DNA of 64,000 nucleotides from Nitrospirota bacterium (GTDB lineage Bacteria > Nitrospirota > UBA9217). The DNA is taken from NCBI GenBank assembly GCA_963740085.1, contig CAVUCU010000007.1, positions 122,835-186,834 on the forward strand, read 5' to 3'. Below the pieces are notes generated by a model. That model was not told where the DNA came from, did not search any database, and saw only the letters and a list, made by a program, of their open reading frames with translations. Shown here in pieces: positions 993-53,390 of the stretch. Within the stretch, counting starts at the first letter, position 1; every line of letters starts with the position of its first letter. Position numbers and translations under genes: made by a program.

Positions 993-1282
993 TCCATACA
1001 GTATGGTCCCTGGAAAATCAAAAGGTATGGGTCCTTTGCTGTTCTTTGTGCGCTTCGTGCCTTCGTGTGAGTATGTGCTTTAGGGTCTTGCGAGTTACGG
1101 TTCAACTTGCATTCATGCCGCGGAGCAGACAGAAAATCATAAGAGGAAGGGCATTTGCCTTTCACCCGTGATTGGATTCTCTCCGTTCACTCGGTCAACG
1201 CTGTGGCTAAAAATATTTTTCCGGTTTGTCAGGGTTACGTTTCAGAAATTCTGATTTCGAATTTACTGCCGAGGAGGTGCGA

Positions 1283-4393: not shown

Positions 4394-5062
4394 CTATCCG
4401 TCCAACGGTTCTATGCTTTCCGGCGAATCGTATTTAAAAGAGTTCACCTTTGGAGTAACAGGGAATAATTCCATCTCCTCTGATGGGTAAGGATTCAATA
4501 GCCCGGGAAGAACTGAACTATCCTGAACCCTGGGATCCAGCCATAGGTCATATTTGTCCGCCGGGGCAATGACCGGCATCCGCTCGTGAATGGGCATGAC
4601 CAACTGGTTCGCGCCGGTCGTTATGATCGTACTCATCGTGAGCAGTTCACCGTCCGGGGACCCCCAGGCGTTATACAGTCCGGCAAAGCCAAATGGCTTG
4701 TGTGACTTGAGCCTGACATAGAAAGGCTTCCTTGTCGTTCCTTCCTTTCGCCATTCGTAGAATCCATCAGCCACCACAAGACACCGCTGTTTCTCGAAGG
4801 CCGATTTGAACGCCTTGCTGCTTGCAACGGTCTCCGCACGAGCATTGATCATCCCGTAGCTGGCATCAAGGTCCTGGGACCAGGACGGCACAAAACCCCA
4901 TCGGGACTTGATAAGCCTCCGTTTACCATCGTTGACGACGATCAGAATGTCCTGACTGGGCGCGATGTTATAGTGGGGCGGATATTCAAGATCCCGGTCA
5001 GCGATCCCGAATATCTCCGCGATTACCTCAATGGCGCTATGTATCTCAAATCGTCCGCACAT
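4394..5062 (-). CDS. yedK: SOS response-associated peptidase (SRAP/YedK/HMCES family)
   Basis: The hallmark N-terminus 'MCGRF' (catalytic Cys2) is present along with conserved 'YNIAPSQ' and 'ADGFYEW' motifs. An extended -10 TGCTATACT and an AGGTGA RBS are visible upstream on the minus strand. Confidence 0.9.
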   Translation of the reverse strand: MCGRFEIHSAIEVIAEIFGIADRDLEYPPHYNIAPSQDILIVVNDGKRRLIKSRWGFVPSWSQDLDASYGMINARAETVASSKAFKSAFEKQRCLVVADGFYEWRKEGTTRKPFYVRLKSHKPFGFAGLYNAWGSPDGELLTMSTIITTGANQLVMPIHERMPVIAPADKYDLWLDPRVQDSSVLPGLLNPYPSEEMELFPVTPKVNSFKYDSPESIEPLDG

Positions 5063-5165: not shown

Positions 5166-5762
5166 ATGCCATCACCGATCGCTAAGGAAGAAAAGCACCG
5201 CTCCCGCATCCGGGACATTGCCCGTTTCCAGCAGAAAAACGGCAGGATGCCCAGTTTTTCAGAGCTCGGCGAGATAACCGGTCTGCGGTCAAAGAACGCG
5301 GTATTCAAGCTTGTAGGCAAGCTGGAAAAGCTCAAGGTCGTGGCGCGGGACAAGAAGGGCAGGCTTATTCCCGGTTCGATCGCCTGCCCTGTCAAGGTGC
5401 TGGGAACGGTCGAGGCAGGCTTCCCCTCTCCCGCGGAAGAAGAGCTGGTTGATACCCTTTCCCTTGATGATTTCCTGATCCAGAACCGGGAGGCAACCTT
5501 TTTGCTCAAGGTATCCGGCGATTCCATGTCCGGCGCGGGGATACTTGCGGGTGATATGGTCATCGTGGATAAGGGCCGGACGCCAAAGAGCGGCGATATT
5601 GTGATCGCCCAGGTGGACGGTGAGTGGACCATGAAGTACTTACGGAAGCGTGGTGACAACGTGACCCTCGTAGCCGCAAACCCCAAATACCAGCCCATCA
5701 AACCGAAGCGTGAACTCAAGATCTCGGGGGTCGTGACAGCCGTGGTGAGAAAATATAAATAG
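5166..5762 (+). CDS. lexA: LexA repressor (wHTH + S24 peptidase domain)
   Basis: The C-terminal 'VSGDSMSGAGILAGDMVIVD...KYLRKRGDNVTLVAANP' has the Ser/Lys dyad context. The N-terminal 'GRMPSFSELGEITGLRS' matches the DNA-binding region. The ORF-track start at 5031 is an over-extension. Confidence 0.85.
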   Translation: MPSPIAKEEKHRSRIRDIARFQQKNGRMPSFSELGEITGLRSKNAVFKLVGKLEKLKVVARDKKGRLIPGSIACPVKVLGTVEAGFPSPAEEELVDTLSLDDFLIQNREATFLLKVSGDSMSGAGILAGDMVIVDKGRTPKSGDIVIAQVDGEWTMKYLRKRGDNVTLVAANPKYQPIKPKRELKISGVVTAVVRKYK

Positions 5763-5783
5763 GGCAAGGCAAAAATGAATTAG

Positions 5784-6001
5784 TCTCACACGAAGCCACA
5801 AAGCCACGAAGAAAGGCGGAACTCGCAAATGTCCATACAACACAAGGATGGAATGACCGAGATGAATTTCGGTGAAGGTATGATGAAAGATGGCATATCC
5901 CGTATTCTGAACGGACAGGTAACATAGTACGAAAAATCATATCTCACACGAAGCTACAAAGAAAAAAGCTCCCCTTCGTGGCTTTGTGCCTTTGTGTGAG
6001 A
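5784..6001. repeat. MITE-like element with ~30-bp terminal inverted repeats (TCTCACACGAAGCCACAAAGCCACGAAG ... CTTCGTGGCTTTGTGCCTTTGTGTGAGA)
   Basis: The ends are reverse complements of each other. The internal 5942-5967 stretch repeats the left end. The motifs are related to the 12014/23135/53224 repeat family. Confidence 0.5.
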
Positions 6002-6190
6002 ACGATCTGTTTTTTACGAGGATCAAATTCCGTCTTGCGGAAAATTATGAACGATGTTAAGCTGAATGCGGATCGAAGCCGATGACATGCCGATACGGCT
6101 GCAGGCTAAAGCAGCACCTCTGGGAAAGCGCATACAGAGAGATGCTTCTTGTCCGAATAAATAAGTTAGGCTCTACTAAGGAGGAAATGA

Positions 6191-7270
6191 GTGGGCGTTG
6201 AGGAGAAAAACAGGAACGAAATCCTTTCCCGGGTAGTTGCCGCTCTCTTTGTGAAATCGAAGGGAGGGGAAGAGCTGTCATCCAATATCCATCGTCTCCG
6301 CGAGGAAATAAAGAAAGTGATCGAAGGTGAGGATACGATATTCGGAAAATTCCGTGGACTCGTGGAATCGTTCCGGGACATCATTCCTGAGGAGAAACAG
6401 CGTTATCATGCCGCTATCCAGGCATTGTCGACAACTTCGAAGCTAAGCCAGCAAGAGATCGTTAAGGCCGTCAACAATCAGTTCGAGGAGCTTAAAATAC
6501 TCGAGAAGGGTTTAATGCCTGCCCTCCCCGGTTGGCGCGACGAGCTTAAGGTCATGGAAACCAGATCGCGGGAGATGCGGGACGAGATATCGAAACTGCG
6601 TGAAAAAATAGGGCAGCTTGAGAGCGAAGAAAAAGGGATACTCACTGGCATGGCGGCACGGGAAAAGGAAATGGCGCTCGTCGAGAAGGCAGTGACCGAA
6701 CTTTTCACGGATTTGGGAGCGGAGATAACCTCTATCAAAAAAAAGGTTGAGGAATTTACTGCTGAAAGTGCGGCCTCTCAGCCAATCCCGGCCAAGGATT
6801 CTATGAAAAGTGATATTCCCCGCGAGGAAAAGGGAAGCGGCGAGCGGAAAAGCGAGATCCCCGAGTCTCCAGCACCGCAGGGTGCGGAATGGCAGAAAAA
6901 ATGCCCTATGTGCGGGGGGCGAATGGACTTCTACAGTCAGGAGGAAATGTGGCAGTGTTATTCCTGCGCATACGAAGAACTAAAAAAGGATGAAGCTCCG
7001 GGTGAAAGCGAAGAGAAAAGTGAGCCTGCGAACGCACCTCAACCCGCTCCGGCTTCGAAGCCGGGTTCCGGTCCATCTCCGCGCCGTGCCGTCCATATGG
7101 GATCCCTGTCTTCCGACGAAAACCAGGAACCAAGAGAGGAATCATCACTGTCCATTAACCAGCCATCGTCCAAAAAAAAGACCTGTCCGGTCTGCCGTAA
7201 AAAGATGGATTGGCACCAGAAGGAGAAGGCCTGGCGGTGCCCCTTCTGCGACTACGAGAGAAGTATCTAA
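6191..7270 (+). CDS. hypothetical coiled-coil protein with two C-terminal zinc ribbons (GTG start)
   Basis: AAGGAGG RBS sits 7 nt before the GTG start. The N-terminal approximately 200 aa is heptad-rich and charged. Zinc ribbons are 'CPMCGGRMD...CYSCAYEE' and 'CPVCRKKMD...CPFCDYE', separated by a Pro/Ser/Glu-rich linker. Confidence 0.6.
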   Translation: MGVEEKNRNEILSRVVAALFVKSKGGEELSSNIHRLREEIKKVIEGEDTIFGKFRGLVESFRDIIPEEKQRYHAAIQALSTTSKLSQQEIVKAVNNQFEELKILEKGLMPALPGWRDELKVMETRSREMRDEISKLREKIGQLESEEKGILTGMAAREKEMALVEKAVTELFTDLGAEITSIKKKVEEFTAESAASQPIPAKDSMKSDIPREEKGSGERKSEIPESPAPQGAEWQKKCPMCGGRMDFYSQEEMWQCYSCAYEELKKDEAPGESEEKSEPANAPQPAPASKPGSGPSPRRAVHMGSLSSDENQEPREESSLSINQPSSKKKTCPVCRKKMDWHQKEKAWRCPFCDYERSI

Positions 7271-8901: not shown

Positions 8902-8995
8902 GGGTGAAAAGACCACGATCTATTGTACTTTTTTCGCCCTCCGTCTCCGCGTCCCCCCGTCACCGTGTCGGGTTTATCATCTATCGGAGTTGTTT

Positions 8996-10309
8996 ATGAC
9001 CGACCAATTCATATCCCTCTCCTCCTGGCCGCAGGCGATCATGCATATCGACGCCGACGCCTTTTTTGCCTCCTGTGAGCAGGCGATCCATCCGGAACTT
9101 AAAGGGAGGCCGGTGATCTGCGGCAAGGAGCGCGGCATTGTCGCCGCCGCGAGCTATGAGGCAAAGGCCCGGGGAGTCACTCGCGGGGTGCGGCTTTCGG
9201 ACGTGAAGAAGATCTGTCCCGATGCGGTCATTCTTCCGTCCGATTATGAGACCTACAGTCTCTTTTCCGTTCGCATGTTCGAGATCCTGCGGCGCTTTTC
9301 ACCTGATGTCGAGGAGTACTCTATTGATGAGGCCTTTGTCGATCTGACCGGCCTGAGACGAAGCTATCATGGCCCGTATGAAGTGATCGCCGAAAAAATG
9401 CGAACAGCGATCGAGACAGAGCTGGGGATCACCGTATCGGCCGGGGTAAGCCTTTCCAAGGTCCTGGCCAAGATCGGATCAAAGCACAATAAACCGAACG
9501 GTCTCACCATGATCCCGGGGAGAGATATTCATCGTTATCTGGAGAAACTGCCTGTCGAAAAGGTCTGGGGCATAGGGGCGAACACGGCGGCATTTCTGAG
9601 AAAGCACGGGATCACAACCGCTTTGCAGTTCACAAAAAAGGACGAGGGCTTCATAAAGAAGTTTCTGTCAAAACCCTACCAGGAGATCTGGCACGAGTTG
9701 AACGGCAGGAGCGTGTACCCGGTCACCACGGAGACAAAGAACAGCTACCAGTCGATAAGCAAGGCCAGGACCTTTACGCCGCCGTCCATGGATGAGGGTT
9801 TTGTATTTGCCCAGCTCTCCAAGAACCTGGAAAACGCATGCATCAAGGCAAGGAGGTACCGGCTGGCGGCCGCGCGGATCATTGTGTTCCTCAGGAAGCA
9901 GGATTTTACGAGCAGTGGAGTGGAAATTAAGCTGACCCGGCCTACCGCGTACCCGGTGGAACTGTTCGGGCTCCTGCGCCAGGGCTTTGAGCAGGTATTC
10001 GAATCCCGGGCCTTATACCGTCAGACAGGGGTCGTTCTTTCCGGCCTGGTCGCGGAGGGCGGGATCCAGTTCAGCCTTTTCGATGATACGACAAAGATAG
10101 AGAAGATGGCCAGGATCTACAGCGTCGTTGATGAGATCTCGGCGAAGTACGGAAAGCACACCATTCAGCACGCAGCGAGCCTGCCGACGAAGCTCCAGGC
10201 CCAGCACGAGGGAGAGCGGGGTGATGTCCCGGTAAGAAGAGCGGACCTGTTCAAAGGTGAGACCAGGCGACAGCGGCTGGGACTGCCCTTACTGCATATG
10301 AAGGTGTAA
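8996..10309 (+). CDS. Y-family DNA polymerase (DinB/UmuC-like translesion polymerase)
   Basis: 'MHIDADAFFASCEQ...GRPVICG...GIVAAASYEAKARGV...SIDEAFVDLTG' matches the Y-family catalytic core. GGAG RBS is 7 nt upstream of the ATG at 8996. Confidence 0.85.
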   Translation: MTDQFISLSSWPQAIMHIDADAFFASCEQAIHPELKGRPVICGKERGIVAAASYEAKARGVTRGVRLSDVKKICPDAVILPSDYETYSLFSVRMFEILRRFSPDVEEYSIDEAFVDLTGLRRSYHGPYEVIAEKMRTAIETELGITVSAGVSLSKVLAKIGSKHNKPNGLTMIPGRDIHRYLEKLPVEKVWGIGANTAAFLRKHGITTALQFTKKDEGFIKKFLSKPYQEIWHELNGRSVYPVTTETKNSYQSISKARTFTPPSMDEGFVFAQLSKNLENACIKARRYRLAAARIIVFLRKQDFTSSGVEIKLTRPTAYPVELFGLLRQGFEQVFESRALYRQTGVVLSGLVAEGGIQFSLFDDTTKIEKMARIYSVVDEISAKYGKHTIQHAASLPTKLQAQHEGERGDVPVRRADLFKGETRRQRLGLPLLHMKV

Positions 10310-11999: not shown

Positions 12000-12013
12000 A
12001 ACGATATCCTTAT

Positions 12014-12150
12014 CCGGACAAGCCGGAACCAAATATGCCACAAAGACACGAAGGCACAAAGAAATTCATACAGAGGTTTGTGATTTACCGAGTCCCTAAT
12101 TCTTCGTGTTCTCTTTGAAGCTTGGAGCCTTCGCGGCTGAATTTTGTTTT
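12014..12150. repeat. intergenic repeat family copy A (CCGGACAAGCCGGAACCAAATATGCCACA...CACGAAG...TTCTTCGTG...GCCTTCGCGGCTGAATTTTGTTT)
   Basis: It aligns with copies at 23135-23332 and 53224-53390. It sits between the PP2C and kinase genes inside an operon. Confidence 0.5.
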
Positions 12151-21626: not shown

Positions 21627-22076
21627 GAATTGAAATGAACGATCGCGACGGCACACGGGCAGACAGAAGTCTTTACGATACAGACGGTTGTGGGTATTGA
21701 TGCTGCGGGTGTATTGCTCGGGTGGGGGGGATGATTCGCTGGAAATTATATGGTTATCGAAAGGGGGTATTCGATTTTCGAAGACTAGTGCACGGTAAAA
21801 CTAATTCTTGATTATATTGCACACATATTTATCGTTTATTACCTTGGCATGATTTTAGTTACAGCTAAGTCAATGCATACCTAAAAGGGAAGAATATTTA
21901 ACCGCGAAGGCGCCAAGTACGCGAAGAAAATCTATGGGCTTTTGTTTTAAACACGAAAGCTTTTTTGACGTCCTTTGCGACCCTGGCGCCTTTGCGGTTC
22001 AAAGACTTTGGTTTCGGCTTTTCCGGGTTAGGTAACATGACGGTTCGGAACCATCAACAATTAATTTTATGAGGTA

Positions 22077-23102: not shown

Positions 23103-23134
23103 GGTATGTTAGCCCCTTTGGTCATTATTTTTTC

Positions 23135-23332
23135 CTGACCCGGACAGGCTTGAACCAAATATGCCACAATGGCCAAAAAGAGGGCCACACTGAGACACCC
23201 TCGACAGATTCGTTCGAGGGCAGGCTTCGGCACGAAGAAGTTCAAATATAGGTTTGTGATTTAAACTCCTTAATTCTTCGTGTTTTCTTTGTGCCTTAGA
23301 GCCGTCGTGGCTGAATTTTGTTTCCATTGAGT
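23135..23332. repeat. intergenic repeat family copy B (contains an extra internal hairpin CCCTCGACAGATTCGTTCGAGGG)
   Basis: It aligns with copies A and C and lies between the C-N hydrolase and dcd genes on the same strand. Confidence 0.5.
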
Positions 23333-24965: not shown

Positions 24966-25068
24966 AAGTTAGTACGGTTCACCGTTCAGAGTTCAAAGTT
25001 CAGAGTAGTTTTCAATTGATGGTGTTAGAACTACGAACTTTGAACTATGTACTCTGAACTCGGCTTTT

Positions 25069-27315: not shown

Positions 27316-28320
27316 ATGTATACCCTCGGAATAGAAACCTCATGCGATGAAACCGCGGCTGCGGTGCTGCAGGACGAAAAGGTACTGTCAAACATAGTAT
27401 CCTCGCAGATCGACATCCACAAAAAATTCGGCGGCGTGGTCCCCGAACTCGCATCACGTGAGCACCTTAAGAACCTGATGCCTGTTATCCGCGAGGCGCT
27501 TACCTCCGCATCGGTTACACTCAAGGACATCAACCTCATCGCGGTCACGTACACGCCCGGCCTGATCGGCGCGCTGCTCGTGGGAGTGTCCGCTGCCAAG
27601 GCCATTGCGTATGCGAGCGGCATCCCCTTCATCGGCGTGCACCACGGTGAAGGGCACATCCTCGCGGCGCATATCGAGTATCCGGGTATCGGTTATCCTT
27701 ACATTGCCCTCCTCGTGTCGGGTGGACATACAGCGATCTACCACGTCAAGGGCCTCGGCGAATACCGTCTCCTTGGCCAGACGCGGGACGACGCAGCGGG
27801 CGAAGCCTATGATAAGGTAGCTAAGCTGCTTGGTCTCGAATACCCCGGCGGTCCGGTGCTCGACAAACTCGCCCAGGAGGGCAATCCAGGGACAGTCAAA
27901 TTTCCACGAGGCCATCTGGAGGGCTGCGACTTCAGCTTCAGCGGGCTCAAGACCGCGGTCAGAAACCACCTTGCCCTCTTCAGGAGCAAAGACAAGGGAC
28001 TCGACCCGGGCCTGAACATCAAGGACATTGCGGCCAGTTTTCAGGCTGCGGTCGTGGACACGCTCGTTAACAAGACCATGCAGGCGGCAAGCGGAACGGG
28101 CGTGGACAAGATCGTGGTTGCCGGCGGCGTGGCTGCGAACAGTCTGCTCCGGAAAAGAATGCTGGATGAAGCGGGGAAGCACGGCGCCACACTCTATCTC
28201 CCGGCTATGGGCCTCTGCATCGACAACGCCGCCATGATCGCCCTCGCGGGATATCTCCACCATCAACGCGGCGAGAACTCAAACCTTGACCTGAATCCCC
28301 GACCCGGCATGCCGCTGTGA
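27316..28320 (+). CDS. tsaD: tRNA N6-adenosine threonylcarbamoyltransferase TsaD
   Basis: 'MYTLGIETSCDETAAAVL', 'GVHHGEGH' and 'VAGGVAAN' are present. Confidence 0.9.
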   Translation: MYTLGIETSCDETAAAVLQDEKVLSNIVSSQIDIHKKFGGVVPELASREHLKNLMPVIREALTSASVTLKDINLIAVTYTPGLIGALLVGVSAAKAIAYASGIPFIGVHHGEGHILAAHIEYPGIGYPYIALLVSGGHTAIYHVKGLGEYRLLGQTRDDAAGEAYDKVAKLLGLEYPGGPVLDKLAQEGNPGTVKFPRGHLEGCDFSFSGLKTAVRNHLALFRSKDKGLDPGLNIKDIAASFQAAVVDTLVNKTMQAASGTGVDKIVVAGGVAANSLLRKRMLDEAGKHGATLYLPAMGLCIDNAAMIALAGYLHHQRGENSNLDLNPRPGMPL

Positions 28321-28330
28321 ATTATTCTCA
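28284..28330. repeat. direct repeat L (attL-like): last 37 nt of tsaD plus 10 nt downstream
   Basis: 43 of 47 nt match 31882-31928. Confidence 0.6.
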
Positions 28331-31764: not shown

Positions 31765-31881
31765 TCTCCACCTCCTGTCCGAATAACGTACCATAAAAGG
31801 TCCTTTAACGCAAGCGGCTTTTTCGGTCATCAAATGACTTTACGCCCATGGGTTAAACTTTAAGCGTGGCGATATCTCCAG

Positions 31882-31928
31882 CCTTGACCTGAACCCCCGC
31901 CCCAGCATGCCGCTGTGAGTTATTCTCA
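31882..31928. repeat. direct repeat R (attR-like): diverged copy of the tsaD 3' end
   Basis: 91% identical to 28284-28330. It would encode ...LDLNPRPSMPL* in the tsaD frame. Confidence 0.6.
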
Positions 31929-53209: not shown

Positions 53210-53223
53210 CGCCTCCTCCTAAT

Positions 53224-53390
53224 CCGGACAAACCGGAACCAAATATGCCACACTGGCCAAGAAGAGGGCCACACTGAGACACGAAGACGCGAAGAAATTC
53301 ATGCGGAGGTTGTAATTCAATAATTCCTTAATTCTTCGTGTTTTCTTTGAGTCTTGGAGCCTTCGTGGCTGAATTTTGTTTCCATTTTGA
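53224..53390. repeat. intergenic repeat family copy C
   Basis: It aligns with copies A and B. It ends at the AGGAGG RBS of the HEAT-repeat gene and lies between two same-strand genes. Confidence 0.5.

Follow-up and report, generated by a model that had tools for sequence, protein, structure and literature searches.

The element described here occupies positions 5784-6001 of the window (the whole 64,000-nt stretch that was analyzed), where it lies between a lexA-like gene and an ORF for a coiled-coil/Zn-ribbon protein, as the original prediction had placed it. The features of this region are:

5166-5762, plus strand: LexA-like S24 peptidase gene, upstream of the element and co-oriented with it
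5771-5783, plus strand: A-rich left flank, AAAAATGAATTAG, a weak extension of the inverted repeat
5784-5811, plus strand: left arm, TCTCA followed by the octamers CACGAAGC CACAAAGC CACGAAG; identical in the full-length cassettes L111 and L112 (see below)
5829-5927, plus strand: GxxExxY (PDDEXK_3) gene remnant of 32 codons, MSIQHKDGMTEMNFGEGMMKDGISRILNGQVT and stop, with a deletion junction at 5862/5863
5942-5961, plus strand: inner left-type arm, TCTCACACGAAGCTACAAAG, which has the outer part of the right arm as its partner in a hairpin that encloses no gene, at the cassette's 3′ end
5974-6001, plus strand: right arm, CTTCGTGG CTTTGTGC CTTTGTG and then TGAGA, the reverse complement of the arm motif
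6002-6014, plus strand: T-rich right flank, ACGATCTGTTTTT, partner of 5771-5783
6191-7270: coiled-coil/Zn-ribbon ORF, the downstream neighbor of the element

The two arms pair at 26 of their 28 positions, and a repeat search extends the inverted repeat to 41 nt at 80% by taking in the left A-run and the right T-run; the terminal inverted repeats of about 30 bp that had been predicted are thus present, as is the predicted internal partial direct repeat, found at 5942-5961 and 95% identical to 5784-5803. Each 28-nt arm consists of TCTCA followed by three CACRAAGN octamers, and the element runs from TCTCACACGAAGCCACAAAGCCACGAAG at its left end to CTTCGTGGCTTTGTGCCTTTGTGTGAGA at its right end, with TTAG and ACGA as immediate left and right flanks. 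ACGA...TTTTTACGAG-like tails are also found 3′ of the right arm in gene-less copies elsewhere. The 20-mer TCTCACACGAAGCCACAAAG has 4 matches in the window at no more than 3 mismatches (0.01 expected), and the two-octamer pattern CACRAAGNCACRAAG has 9 (0.10 expected). The fold of the element region stands well above that of shuffled sequences on both strands (z -5.7 and -5.5), and the inner arm together with the right arm makes a separate 20-bp hairpin (z -4.7 for 5936-6006). A consensus scan found neither promoter-like nor terminator-like sites, the T-run beginning 9 nt past the stem. Rfam gave no match in the whole window at the gathering threshold, and at a permissive threshold the region 5600-6300 gave only chance-level snoRNA matches (E 3.7-4.9).

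The neighborhood contains an SOS-like gene set between 4394 and 10309: an SRAP (YedK-like) gene on the minus strand (4394-5062), the LexA-like S24 peptidase gene (5166-5762), whose Pfam match is restricted to the S24 domain, and a Y-family polymerase (IMS) gene (8990-10309). The leader that precedes the Zn-ribbon gene (6015-6190) is conserved in relatives whether they have the cassette or not, and contains the palindrome TTCCGTCTTGCGGAA and ATGAACGATGNTAAGCTGAA; in this setting it may be an operator or a structured 5′ UTR.

The nature of the element becomes apparent from its relatives. The downstream Zn-ribbon protein has many homologues among Nitrospirota metagenome assemblies, and we fetched the DNA around several of them (these loci are given L-numbers). 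In three of the loci, L111, L112 and L113, the Zn-ribbon protein is 84-85% identical to that of the window, and the spacer between it and lexA contains the same left flank, left arm, inner hairpin and right arm, with an element of ~525 bp that carries an intact PF13366 (PDDEXK_3) ORF of 146-158 aa between the arms. In the alignment both window arms are identical to those of the intact orthologues, the counterpart of the inner arm is likewise found in L111 and L112, and the window, like L109, its 99% twin, lacks 309 bp of L112 and L111 in a single clean in-frame gap between 5862 and 5863. Residues 115-158 of the L112 protein match window positions 5862-5996 at 84% identity (tblastn, E 1.7e-19), and an HMM built from the family matches the window stub with E 3.6e-09. 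The proteins of the relatives, 127-158 aa long, belong to PF13366 (PDDEXK_3) and TIGR04256; P0128, a protein of the L112 type, scores 133 bits against NCBIfam TIGR04256 (cut-off 35; E 5.8e-39). We refer to them as GxxExxY proteins. On this alignment of sequences, any alternative to homology of the stub and arms with the L112 cassette is excluded.

The 309-bp deletion corresponds to codons 12-114 of the L112 ORF, so that the stub at 5829-5927, where a 32-aa gene is called in L109, retains 11 codons from the beginning of the ORF and 21 from its end; translation in the family usually starts at the codon that lies here at 5853-5855. With the deletion went G24, E27 and Y30 as well as D67, E77 and K79 (P0128 numbering), the last three being invariant or nearly so across the family. 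The window copy thus retains the layout of a GxxExxY cassette, a 5′ arm of the form CTCN(CRCNRAGN)x~3 and an inverted 3′ arm around an ORF, and lacks both the intact GxxExxY motif and the catalytic D...ExK core, which makes it a dead remnant. It is unable to make the enzyme any longer, and could at most form a stem as a passive spacer or be acted on by a GxxExxY protein from another locus of the genome. The deletion junction, GGAATGACCGAGA/TGAATTTCGG, occurs in the window and L109 only, among all loci compared, including 65 metagenome loci with the same arm, which marks the window copy as a fossil formed in situ rather than an amplified MITE. Overall, we assign a probability of about 0.85 to the reading of the 218-bp element as a GxxExxY cassette that has been inactivated and reduced to a remnant. 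The body of the element had been predicted to be non-coding, which the in-frame remnant of 32 codons contradicts. The suggestion that it is the short form of a larger unit is borne out by the gene-bearing cassettes with the same termini in L111-L113. The idea of a cognate transposase, for example of the PD-(D/E)XK type, holds to the extent that the full-length form encodes a PD-(D/E)XK protein; that protein is not a member of any known transposase family.

The exact 25-nt arm is found in 65 stretches of metagenome contigs with at least 34 distinct upstream contexts, mostly as gene-less hairpins. The copies with this arm that do bear a gene nearly all lie directly 3′ of lexA genes whose products are 77-94% identical to the window's LexA, and these lexA-linked cassettes (L111-L113, L114, L209/L233, L210, L235, L247, L251 and L260) represent ~10 lineages. 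Pairwise nucleotide identities of the GxxExxY gene and the adjacent lexA correlate with r 0.84, dS is near saturation, and dN/dS is 0.03-0.09 for GxxExxY, below the 0.09-0.22 of lexA, all of which implies that the cassette is an old resident behind lexA that selection has kept functional. The cassette is therefore co-inherited with lexA across a Nitrospirota clade under strong purifying selection, and the window copy reflects vertical inheritance with lexA, not a recent insertion. Vertical residence and purifying selection would also fit a gene that benefits its host as well as they fit a selfish one.

Among the closest relatives, the lexA spacer takes several forms:

L110 (LexA 98% identical to the window's): spacer without cassette
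L195 (LexA 97% identical): spacer without cassette
L194 (LexA 97% identical): frameshifted CGCAAAG-type cassette in the spacer (1734-2218)
L254 (LexA 92% identical): intact CGC-type cassette beside a retained CAC-type left arm (480-1000)

Two of the three closest other relatives sampled thus have no cassette, and the third has one of a different octamer type. We had considered L110 and L195 as pre-insertion states and dropped this idea, as their LexA proteins are closer to the window's than those of the cassette-bearing relatives; the empty sites therefore look like secondary losses. The presence/absence differences among relatives that the original prediction had called for do exist. They reflect decay, loss and replacement, and at least once a cassette of another type reached this spacer independently: the CGCAAAG-type cassettes of L254 and L194 are replacements of, or nested insertions into, a cassette of the other type. 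The spacer is too diverged among the filled, empty and replaced alleles for the exact ends of the element to be defined from them.

Beyond this clade, a 90%-clustered collection contains more than 8000 homologues that are at least 76% identical to the protein of L112, and the GxxExxY family as a whole comprises 16,681 clusters at 50% identity (E <=0.001). From at least 542 confirmed GxxExxY loci, we took the 80 best, one genome per species, their proteins sharing 63-88% identity with the query. Among the source lineages are Nitrospirota, Chloroflexota, Planctomycetota, Verrucomicrobiota, Desulfobacterota, Gammaproteobacteria, Bacteroidota, Thermotogae and Bipolaricaulota; GxxExxY genes linked to octamer arrays occur in at least 15 phyla. 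Carriers include the cultured Pelotalea chapellei DSM 13688 and Lamprocystis purpurea DSM 4197, an 8.2-Mb Desulfatiglandales chromosome (OY759599.1) and the 2.06-Mb Nitrospirota contig of L196. The flanks of the gene contain three or more octamer units in 72 of these 80 best loci, against 25 of 1091 control placements (2.3%) at other positions within the same loci. The intact cassette measures ~0.45-0.55 kb and consists of a gene for a 127-aa protein of the PD-(D/E)XK fold and two inverted arms, each made of CTCN and about three CRCNRAGN octamers. The 5′ arm typically ends 0-16 nt ahead of the start codon (some called N-terminal extensions, such as THTKTQRHEE and SHEDTKTRRK, are the translated 5′ array), and the 3′ arm of roughly half the loci starts no more than 13 nt after the stop codon. 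The GxxExxY array system is widespread and strongly conserved. Tandem proteins with two GxxExxY domains (P0242 and similar, 266-295 aa) also occur among the family representatives.

The octamer varies with lineage (CACRAAG, CGCAAAG/CGCCAAG, CACGGAG, CGCAGAG), and its type is common to both arms of a cassette, with a concordance of 0.90 at position 2 and 0.83 at position 5. It also tracks protein similarity: identity is 71.9% within a type and 68.9% between types, a difference reached in 0 of 2000 permutations. In the 7 loci that have both a cassette and separate hairpins, the types agree in 17 of 19 comparisons, modestly above the 65% expected. The spacing between left and right arrays is bimodal, at 0-100 nt (gene-less) or 350-600 nt, and in all loci compared all but two of the 350-600-nt pairs contain GxxExxY; intermediate spacers with gene fragments are those of the window copy (162 nt) and L136 (138 nt). 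Gene-less pairs are much commoner than gene-bearing ones, and some loci have a complete hairpin on either side of the gene. Other cargo is found between arrays as well: an MNT-like nucleotidyltransferase in L232 (arm 1966-1990) and an ORF of ~130 aa in L034 (3034-3474). Arrays are present in 108 stretches of viral-labelled contigs, where no array pair with a spacer of 100 nt or more contains GxxExxY. Together with the other cargo, this suggests that arrays may be independent of the GxxExxY protein.

The 63-88% identity of the protein across many phyla implies horizontal spread. No homologues were found in phage records and only 7 on plasmids, mostly on records of 0.4-1.1 Mb, so that plasmids and phages are not the main carriers. 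A sequence search of the PDB with the GxxExxY protein gave no match, and its structure model is of moderate confidence (mean pLDDT 68). PADLOC gave just weak similarity to Cas4 or DRT-associated PD-(D/E)XK proteins, which we did not accept as evidence of a role in defense. In the searchable literature, PF13366 appears only as 'unknown' with 'multiple transfers' (PMC3424549). The searchable literature contained no account of the octamer strings or of the cassette of gene plus arrays; as NCBI names the protein family, the gene is known, while the architecture appears to be undescribed.

Several observations bear on how the cassettes might work. Target-site duplications are found neither at the window copy nor in 232 related array pairs, in which direct-repeat counts equal those of a shifted control, and the inverted repeat reaches just 2-6 nt past the arrays (CTCN/NGAG, GAAC/GTTC or GC/GC). 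We infer the mobility of cassettes and arrays solely from their distribution. In arms of three units, agreement between the two arms at octamer position 4 is 0.44, compared with 0.39 for non-cognate pairs, and at position 8 it is 0.40, compared with 0.31. With positions 2 and 5 agreeing and positions 4 and 8 nearly independent, conservation applies to the 7-nt motif, repeated in inverted arrays, and not to the perfect pairing of a stem; this is closer to what putative arrays of protein-binding sites would show than to a pure hairpin. On the sense strand of gene-bearing elements, G-U appositions outnumber A-C ones weakly (65 vs 43, p 0.04), and gene-less hairpins between co-directional ORFs have no bias (68 vs 59, p 0.48). 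In 55 loci the cassette reads in the direction of the nearest upstream ORF, compared with 9 in which it is opposed, and the purine-rich penultimate unit of the 5′ array is located where a Shine-Dalgarno sequence would be. Since the arms abut the ORF and leave little room for a promoter, this co-orientation points to expression by read-through, here from lexA.

Based on these observations, we propose the following working. Intact cassettes would be expressed by read-through, as part of transcripts that run on from the co-oriented gene ahead of them (here lexA), and the purine-rich 5′ array would serve as the ribosome-binding region. The nuclease would then recognize the octamer arrays, with three sites per arm in inverted orientation, and cut or recombine DNA there. 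Such array-directed activity could maintain and spread the gene-less pairs, and rarely the gene itself, without duplicating the target. By analogy, the RAYT transposase and its REPINs may serve as a model for the propagation step. We offer the chain from read-through to array-directed spread, as a whole, tentatively, as somewhat short of an even bet. We hold with similar reserve, as a possible but not yet probable generalization, that GxxExxY proteins are the trans-acting PD-(D/E)XK nucleases of a phylum-spanning CRCNRAGN repeat system, which would propagate hairpins, and rarely their own gene or small cargo, without duplication; this would make them a second, mechanistically unrelated counterpart of RAYT/REPIN. 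If the nuclease does act in trans in this way, the position of the cassette behind lexA in the Nitrospirota clade would mean that it is expressed with the SOS response.

Other explanations of the element differ in what they make of its arms. At one extreme the inverted repeat would be a chance product of low-complexity sequence without biological meaning. The simple, repetitive octamers are all that speaks for this, and it is refuted by the match counts in the window (4 against 0.01 expected, 9 against 0.10) and by the orthologous copies and the hundreds of related elements elsewhere. The original prediction read the element as MITE-like. A classical MITE would be an IS-derived, non-autonomous, multi-copy element, mobilized in trans by a transposase that recognizes its terminal inverted repeats of ~28 bp, and the element does have terminal inverted repeats, a small size, no functional coding capacity, an internal deletion relative to a gene-bearing parent and arms whose identical sequence recurs in many contexts. 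The target-site duplications that the prediction had pointed to are, however, lacking both here and in the 232 array pairs, and the shortened form has not multiplied, its junction being confined to the window and L109. Moreover, the window copy has full-length orthologues and descended together with lexA, and the parent codes for a 127-aa PD-(D/E)XK protein of no known transposase family. We therefore regard the MITE reading as largely refuted and highly improbable as an account of the element; it was partly right, in seeing a deletion derivative of a PD-(D/E)XK unit with a shared motif, and wrong about the mode, as an amplified and recently inserted element is not what the confined junction and the vertical inheritance with lexA describe.

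Two further explanations assign the arms a role in RNA. In one, the element is a cis-regulatory stem-loop of the host placed after lexA, i.e., a terminator, an attenuator or an mRNA-stabilizing hairpin, and the gene remnant is incidental. A very stable stem is possible on both strands, the arms lie between an A-run on the left and a T-run on the right (for REPIN doublets with such flanks, co-option for attenuation has been suggested; PMC3337134), the arms are still intact after the death of the gene, and the element lies between co-directional genes. Against this, L110 and L195 (LexA 98% and 97% identical) have the same flanking genes and are entirely without the element, the consensus scan found no terminator-like site, with the T-run 9 nt past the stem, and the conserved leader of the downstream gene has its start beyond the element and is retained whether or not a relative has the element; we consider such a function unlikely. 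In the other, the arrays would act as in the ORF-bearing intervening sequences of 23S rRNA, pairing in the read-through transcript so as to hide the ribosome-binding region and/or to be cut by RNase III, which would free the cassette mRNA. This would account for the strong co-orientation with the upstream gene (55 vs 9), for the purine-rich 5′ array that abuts the start codon with its penultimate unit in the Shine-Dalgarno position, and for the slight preference for G-U in gene-bearing elements (65 vs 43, p 0.04). Gene-less hairpins, however, have no such strand bias (68 vs 59, p 0.48), octamer positions 4 and 8 barely co-vary (0.44 vs 0.39 and 0.40 vs 0.31), so that the stem would carry regular mismatches, none of the compared loci lies inside an rRNA gene, and a role in RNA leaves the dispersal unexplained. 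We find this explanation doubtful. The remnant of a GxxExxY cassette thus remains our preferred reading of the element, with array-directed propagation as the tentative account of the family to which it belongs.

The closest analogue of the GxxExxY cassettes is the REPIN/RAYT system, of which the cassette is nevertheless not a member. In that system, REP doublets and REP-associated tyrosine transposases show long vertical persistence (PMC3337134, PMC3116915, bioRxiv 10.1101/2021.07.10.451892); inverted repeats stand on either side of the enzyme gene, doublets without a gene are scattered through the genome and far more numerous, and each enzyme has its own type of repeat (PMC3337134). The GxxExxY cassettes likewise have a short nuclease-type gene between inverted copies of a short repeat, dispersed intergenic gene-less inverted doublets that far outnumber the gene, a repeat type for each enzyme lineage, long vertical inheritance of the gene under purifying selection and, on some doublets, A-run/T-run flanks. 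They differ in that the GxxExxY enzyme is of the PD-(D/E)XK fold rather than HUH/Y1 (IS200/IS605-like), in that the arms are direct tandem octamers that are not self-complementary, unlike the palindromic REPs with their GTAG or CGTC tag, and in that the protein is 63-88% identical across many phyla. With MITEs such as Correia/NEMIS, Nezha and RUP, the window element shares its small size, intergenic position, terminal inverted repeats and origin by internal deletion of a longer coding element; it differs from them in having neither a target-site duplication nor a DDE transposase parent, and in that the deleted form is confined to a single locus.

Intervening sequences of 23S rRNA can carry a small ORF (the 'S23p' four-helix bundle, TIGR02436) in the loop of a long inverted-repeat stem, and these gene families are patchy, multi-copy and apparently selfish. 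The GxxExxY ORF also lies in the loop of an inverted-repeat stem and belongs to a patchy multi-copy family, but the protein fold differs, and none of the 261 compared loci is in an rRNA gene (one isolated match to a 16S motif, with 3 mismatches, we took as spurious). Integron cassettes are small promoterless ORFs that point the same way as the transcription reaching them from upstream and have imperfect palindromes (attC) as their boundaries. GxxExxY ORFs are similarly co-oriented and palindrome-bounded, in some loci with a complete hairpin on each side. In place of the R′′/L′′-L′/R′ organization of attC, however, they have octamer arrays, usually on both sides of the gene, and the loci that we read contained no integrase or attI near the cassettes. 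In cyanobacterial STRRs, tandem heptamers in intergenic DNA are often palindromically arranged, and IS1397 is an IS element that targets REP loops. Here too, repeat palindromes appear to act as landing sites, as in L254, where the CGC-type cassette adjoins the retained CAC-type arm; the octamer arrays differ from STRRs in period and sequence, and we know of no described link between STRRs or IS elements that target REP loops and GxxExxY genes.

The window copy itself is an ordinary fossil without obvious consequence. Its value is that it exposes an architecture in which a widespread, conserved small nuclease gene is tied to inverted octamer arrays, many pairs of which are gene-less. If the nuclease acts on the arrays, it would represent a new class of enzyme for the propagation of repeat elements and a sequence-programmable pair of nuclease and site, and it would explain a common source of breaks in metagenome assemblies and of spurious small ORFs (with peptides such as HKDTKTQR and LCAFV). 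The linkage to lexA provides a concrete regulatory hypothesis.

Related repeats are found elsewhere in the window:

1040-1075, minus strand: solo arm of the same type, ACTCA CACGAAGG CACGAAGCG CACAAAG, 48 nt after a histidine-kinase gene
12007-12149, minus strand: copy A, a decayed gene-less array pair with GC/CAC termini and conserved flanks, directly upstream of a Ser/Thr kinase gene
21899-22001, no strand assigned: gene-less hairpin of another octamer type, AAC/CGCGAAGG CGCCAAGTA CGCGAAG ... CTTTGCGAC CCTGGCGC CTTTGCG/GTT, fold z -7.4
23133-23323, minus strand: copy B, of the same family as copy A, upstream of a dCTP deaminase gene, with a nested insert of ~34 nt
53217-53381, minus strand: copy C, of the same family, upstream of a HEAT-repeat gene, with the same nested insert as copy B

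No partner arm was found near the solo arm at 1040-1075. The hairpin at 21899-22001, with CGCGAAG/CGCCAAG octamers and AAC...GTT termini, brings the array types in this genome to at least three. The original prediction had placed copies A-C and the element in one family. They do have the octamer motif in common, and the array predicted in copy A was located at 12039-12061, but copies A-C form a different, decayed and gene-less subfamily with GC/CAC termini and weak folds (z -1.2 to -2.3). Their conserved flanks include a small hairpin, CCGGACAAGCCGG, right before the ribosome-binding site of minus-strand genes. The arrays of copies B (23163-23198) and C (53247-53282) are interrupted by a mini-insert of ~25-34 nt, TGGCCAAGAAGAGGGCCACACTGAG, which also occurs in the left arm of the lexA-linked cassette of L254 (542-566), and different small GC-rich hairpins are inserted after the first array unit in L210, L165 and L180; smaller elements still would seem to use the arrays as places to land. 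The window also contains, at 24977-25059 and with a minus-strand ORF on either side, an inverted repeat built of tandem heptamers (TTCAGAG/TTCAAAG; fold z -3.8), and a 64-nt direct repeat, with copies 86% identical and 3.6 kb apart, at 28267-28330 and 31865-31928.
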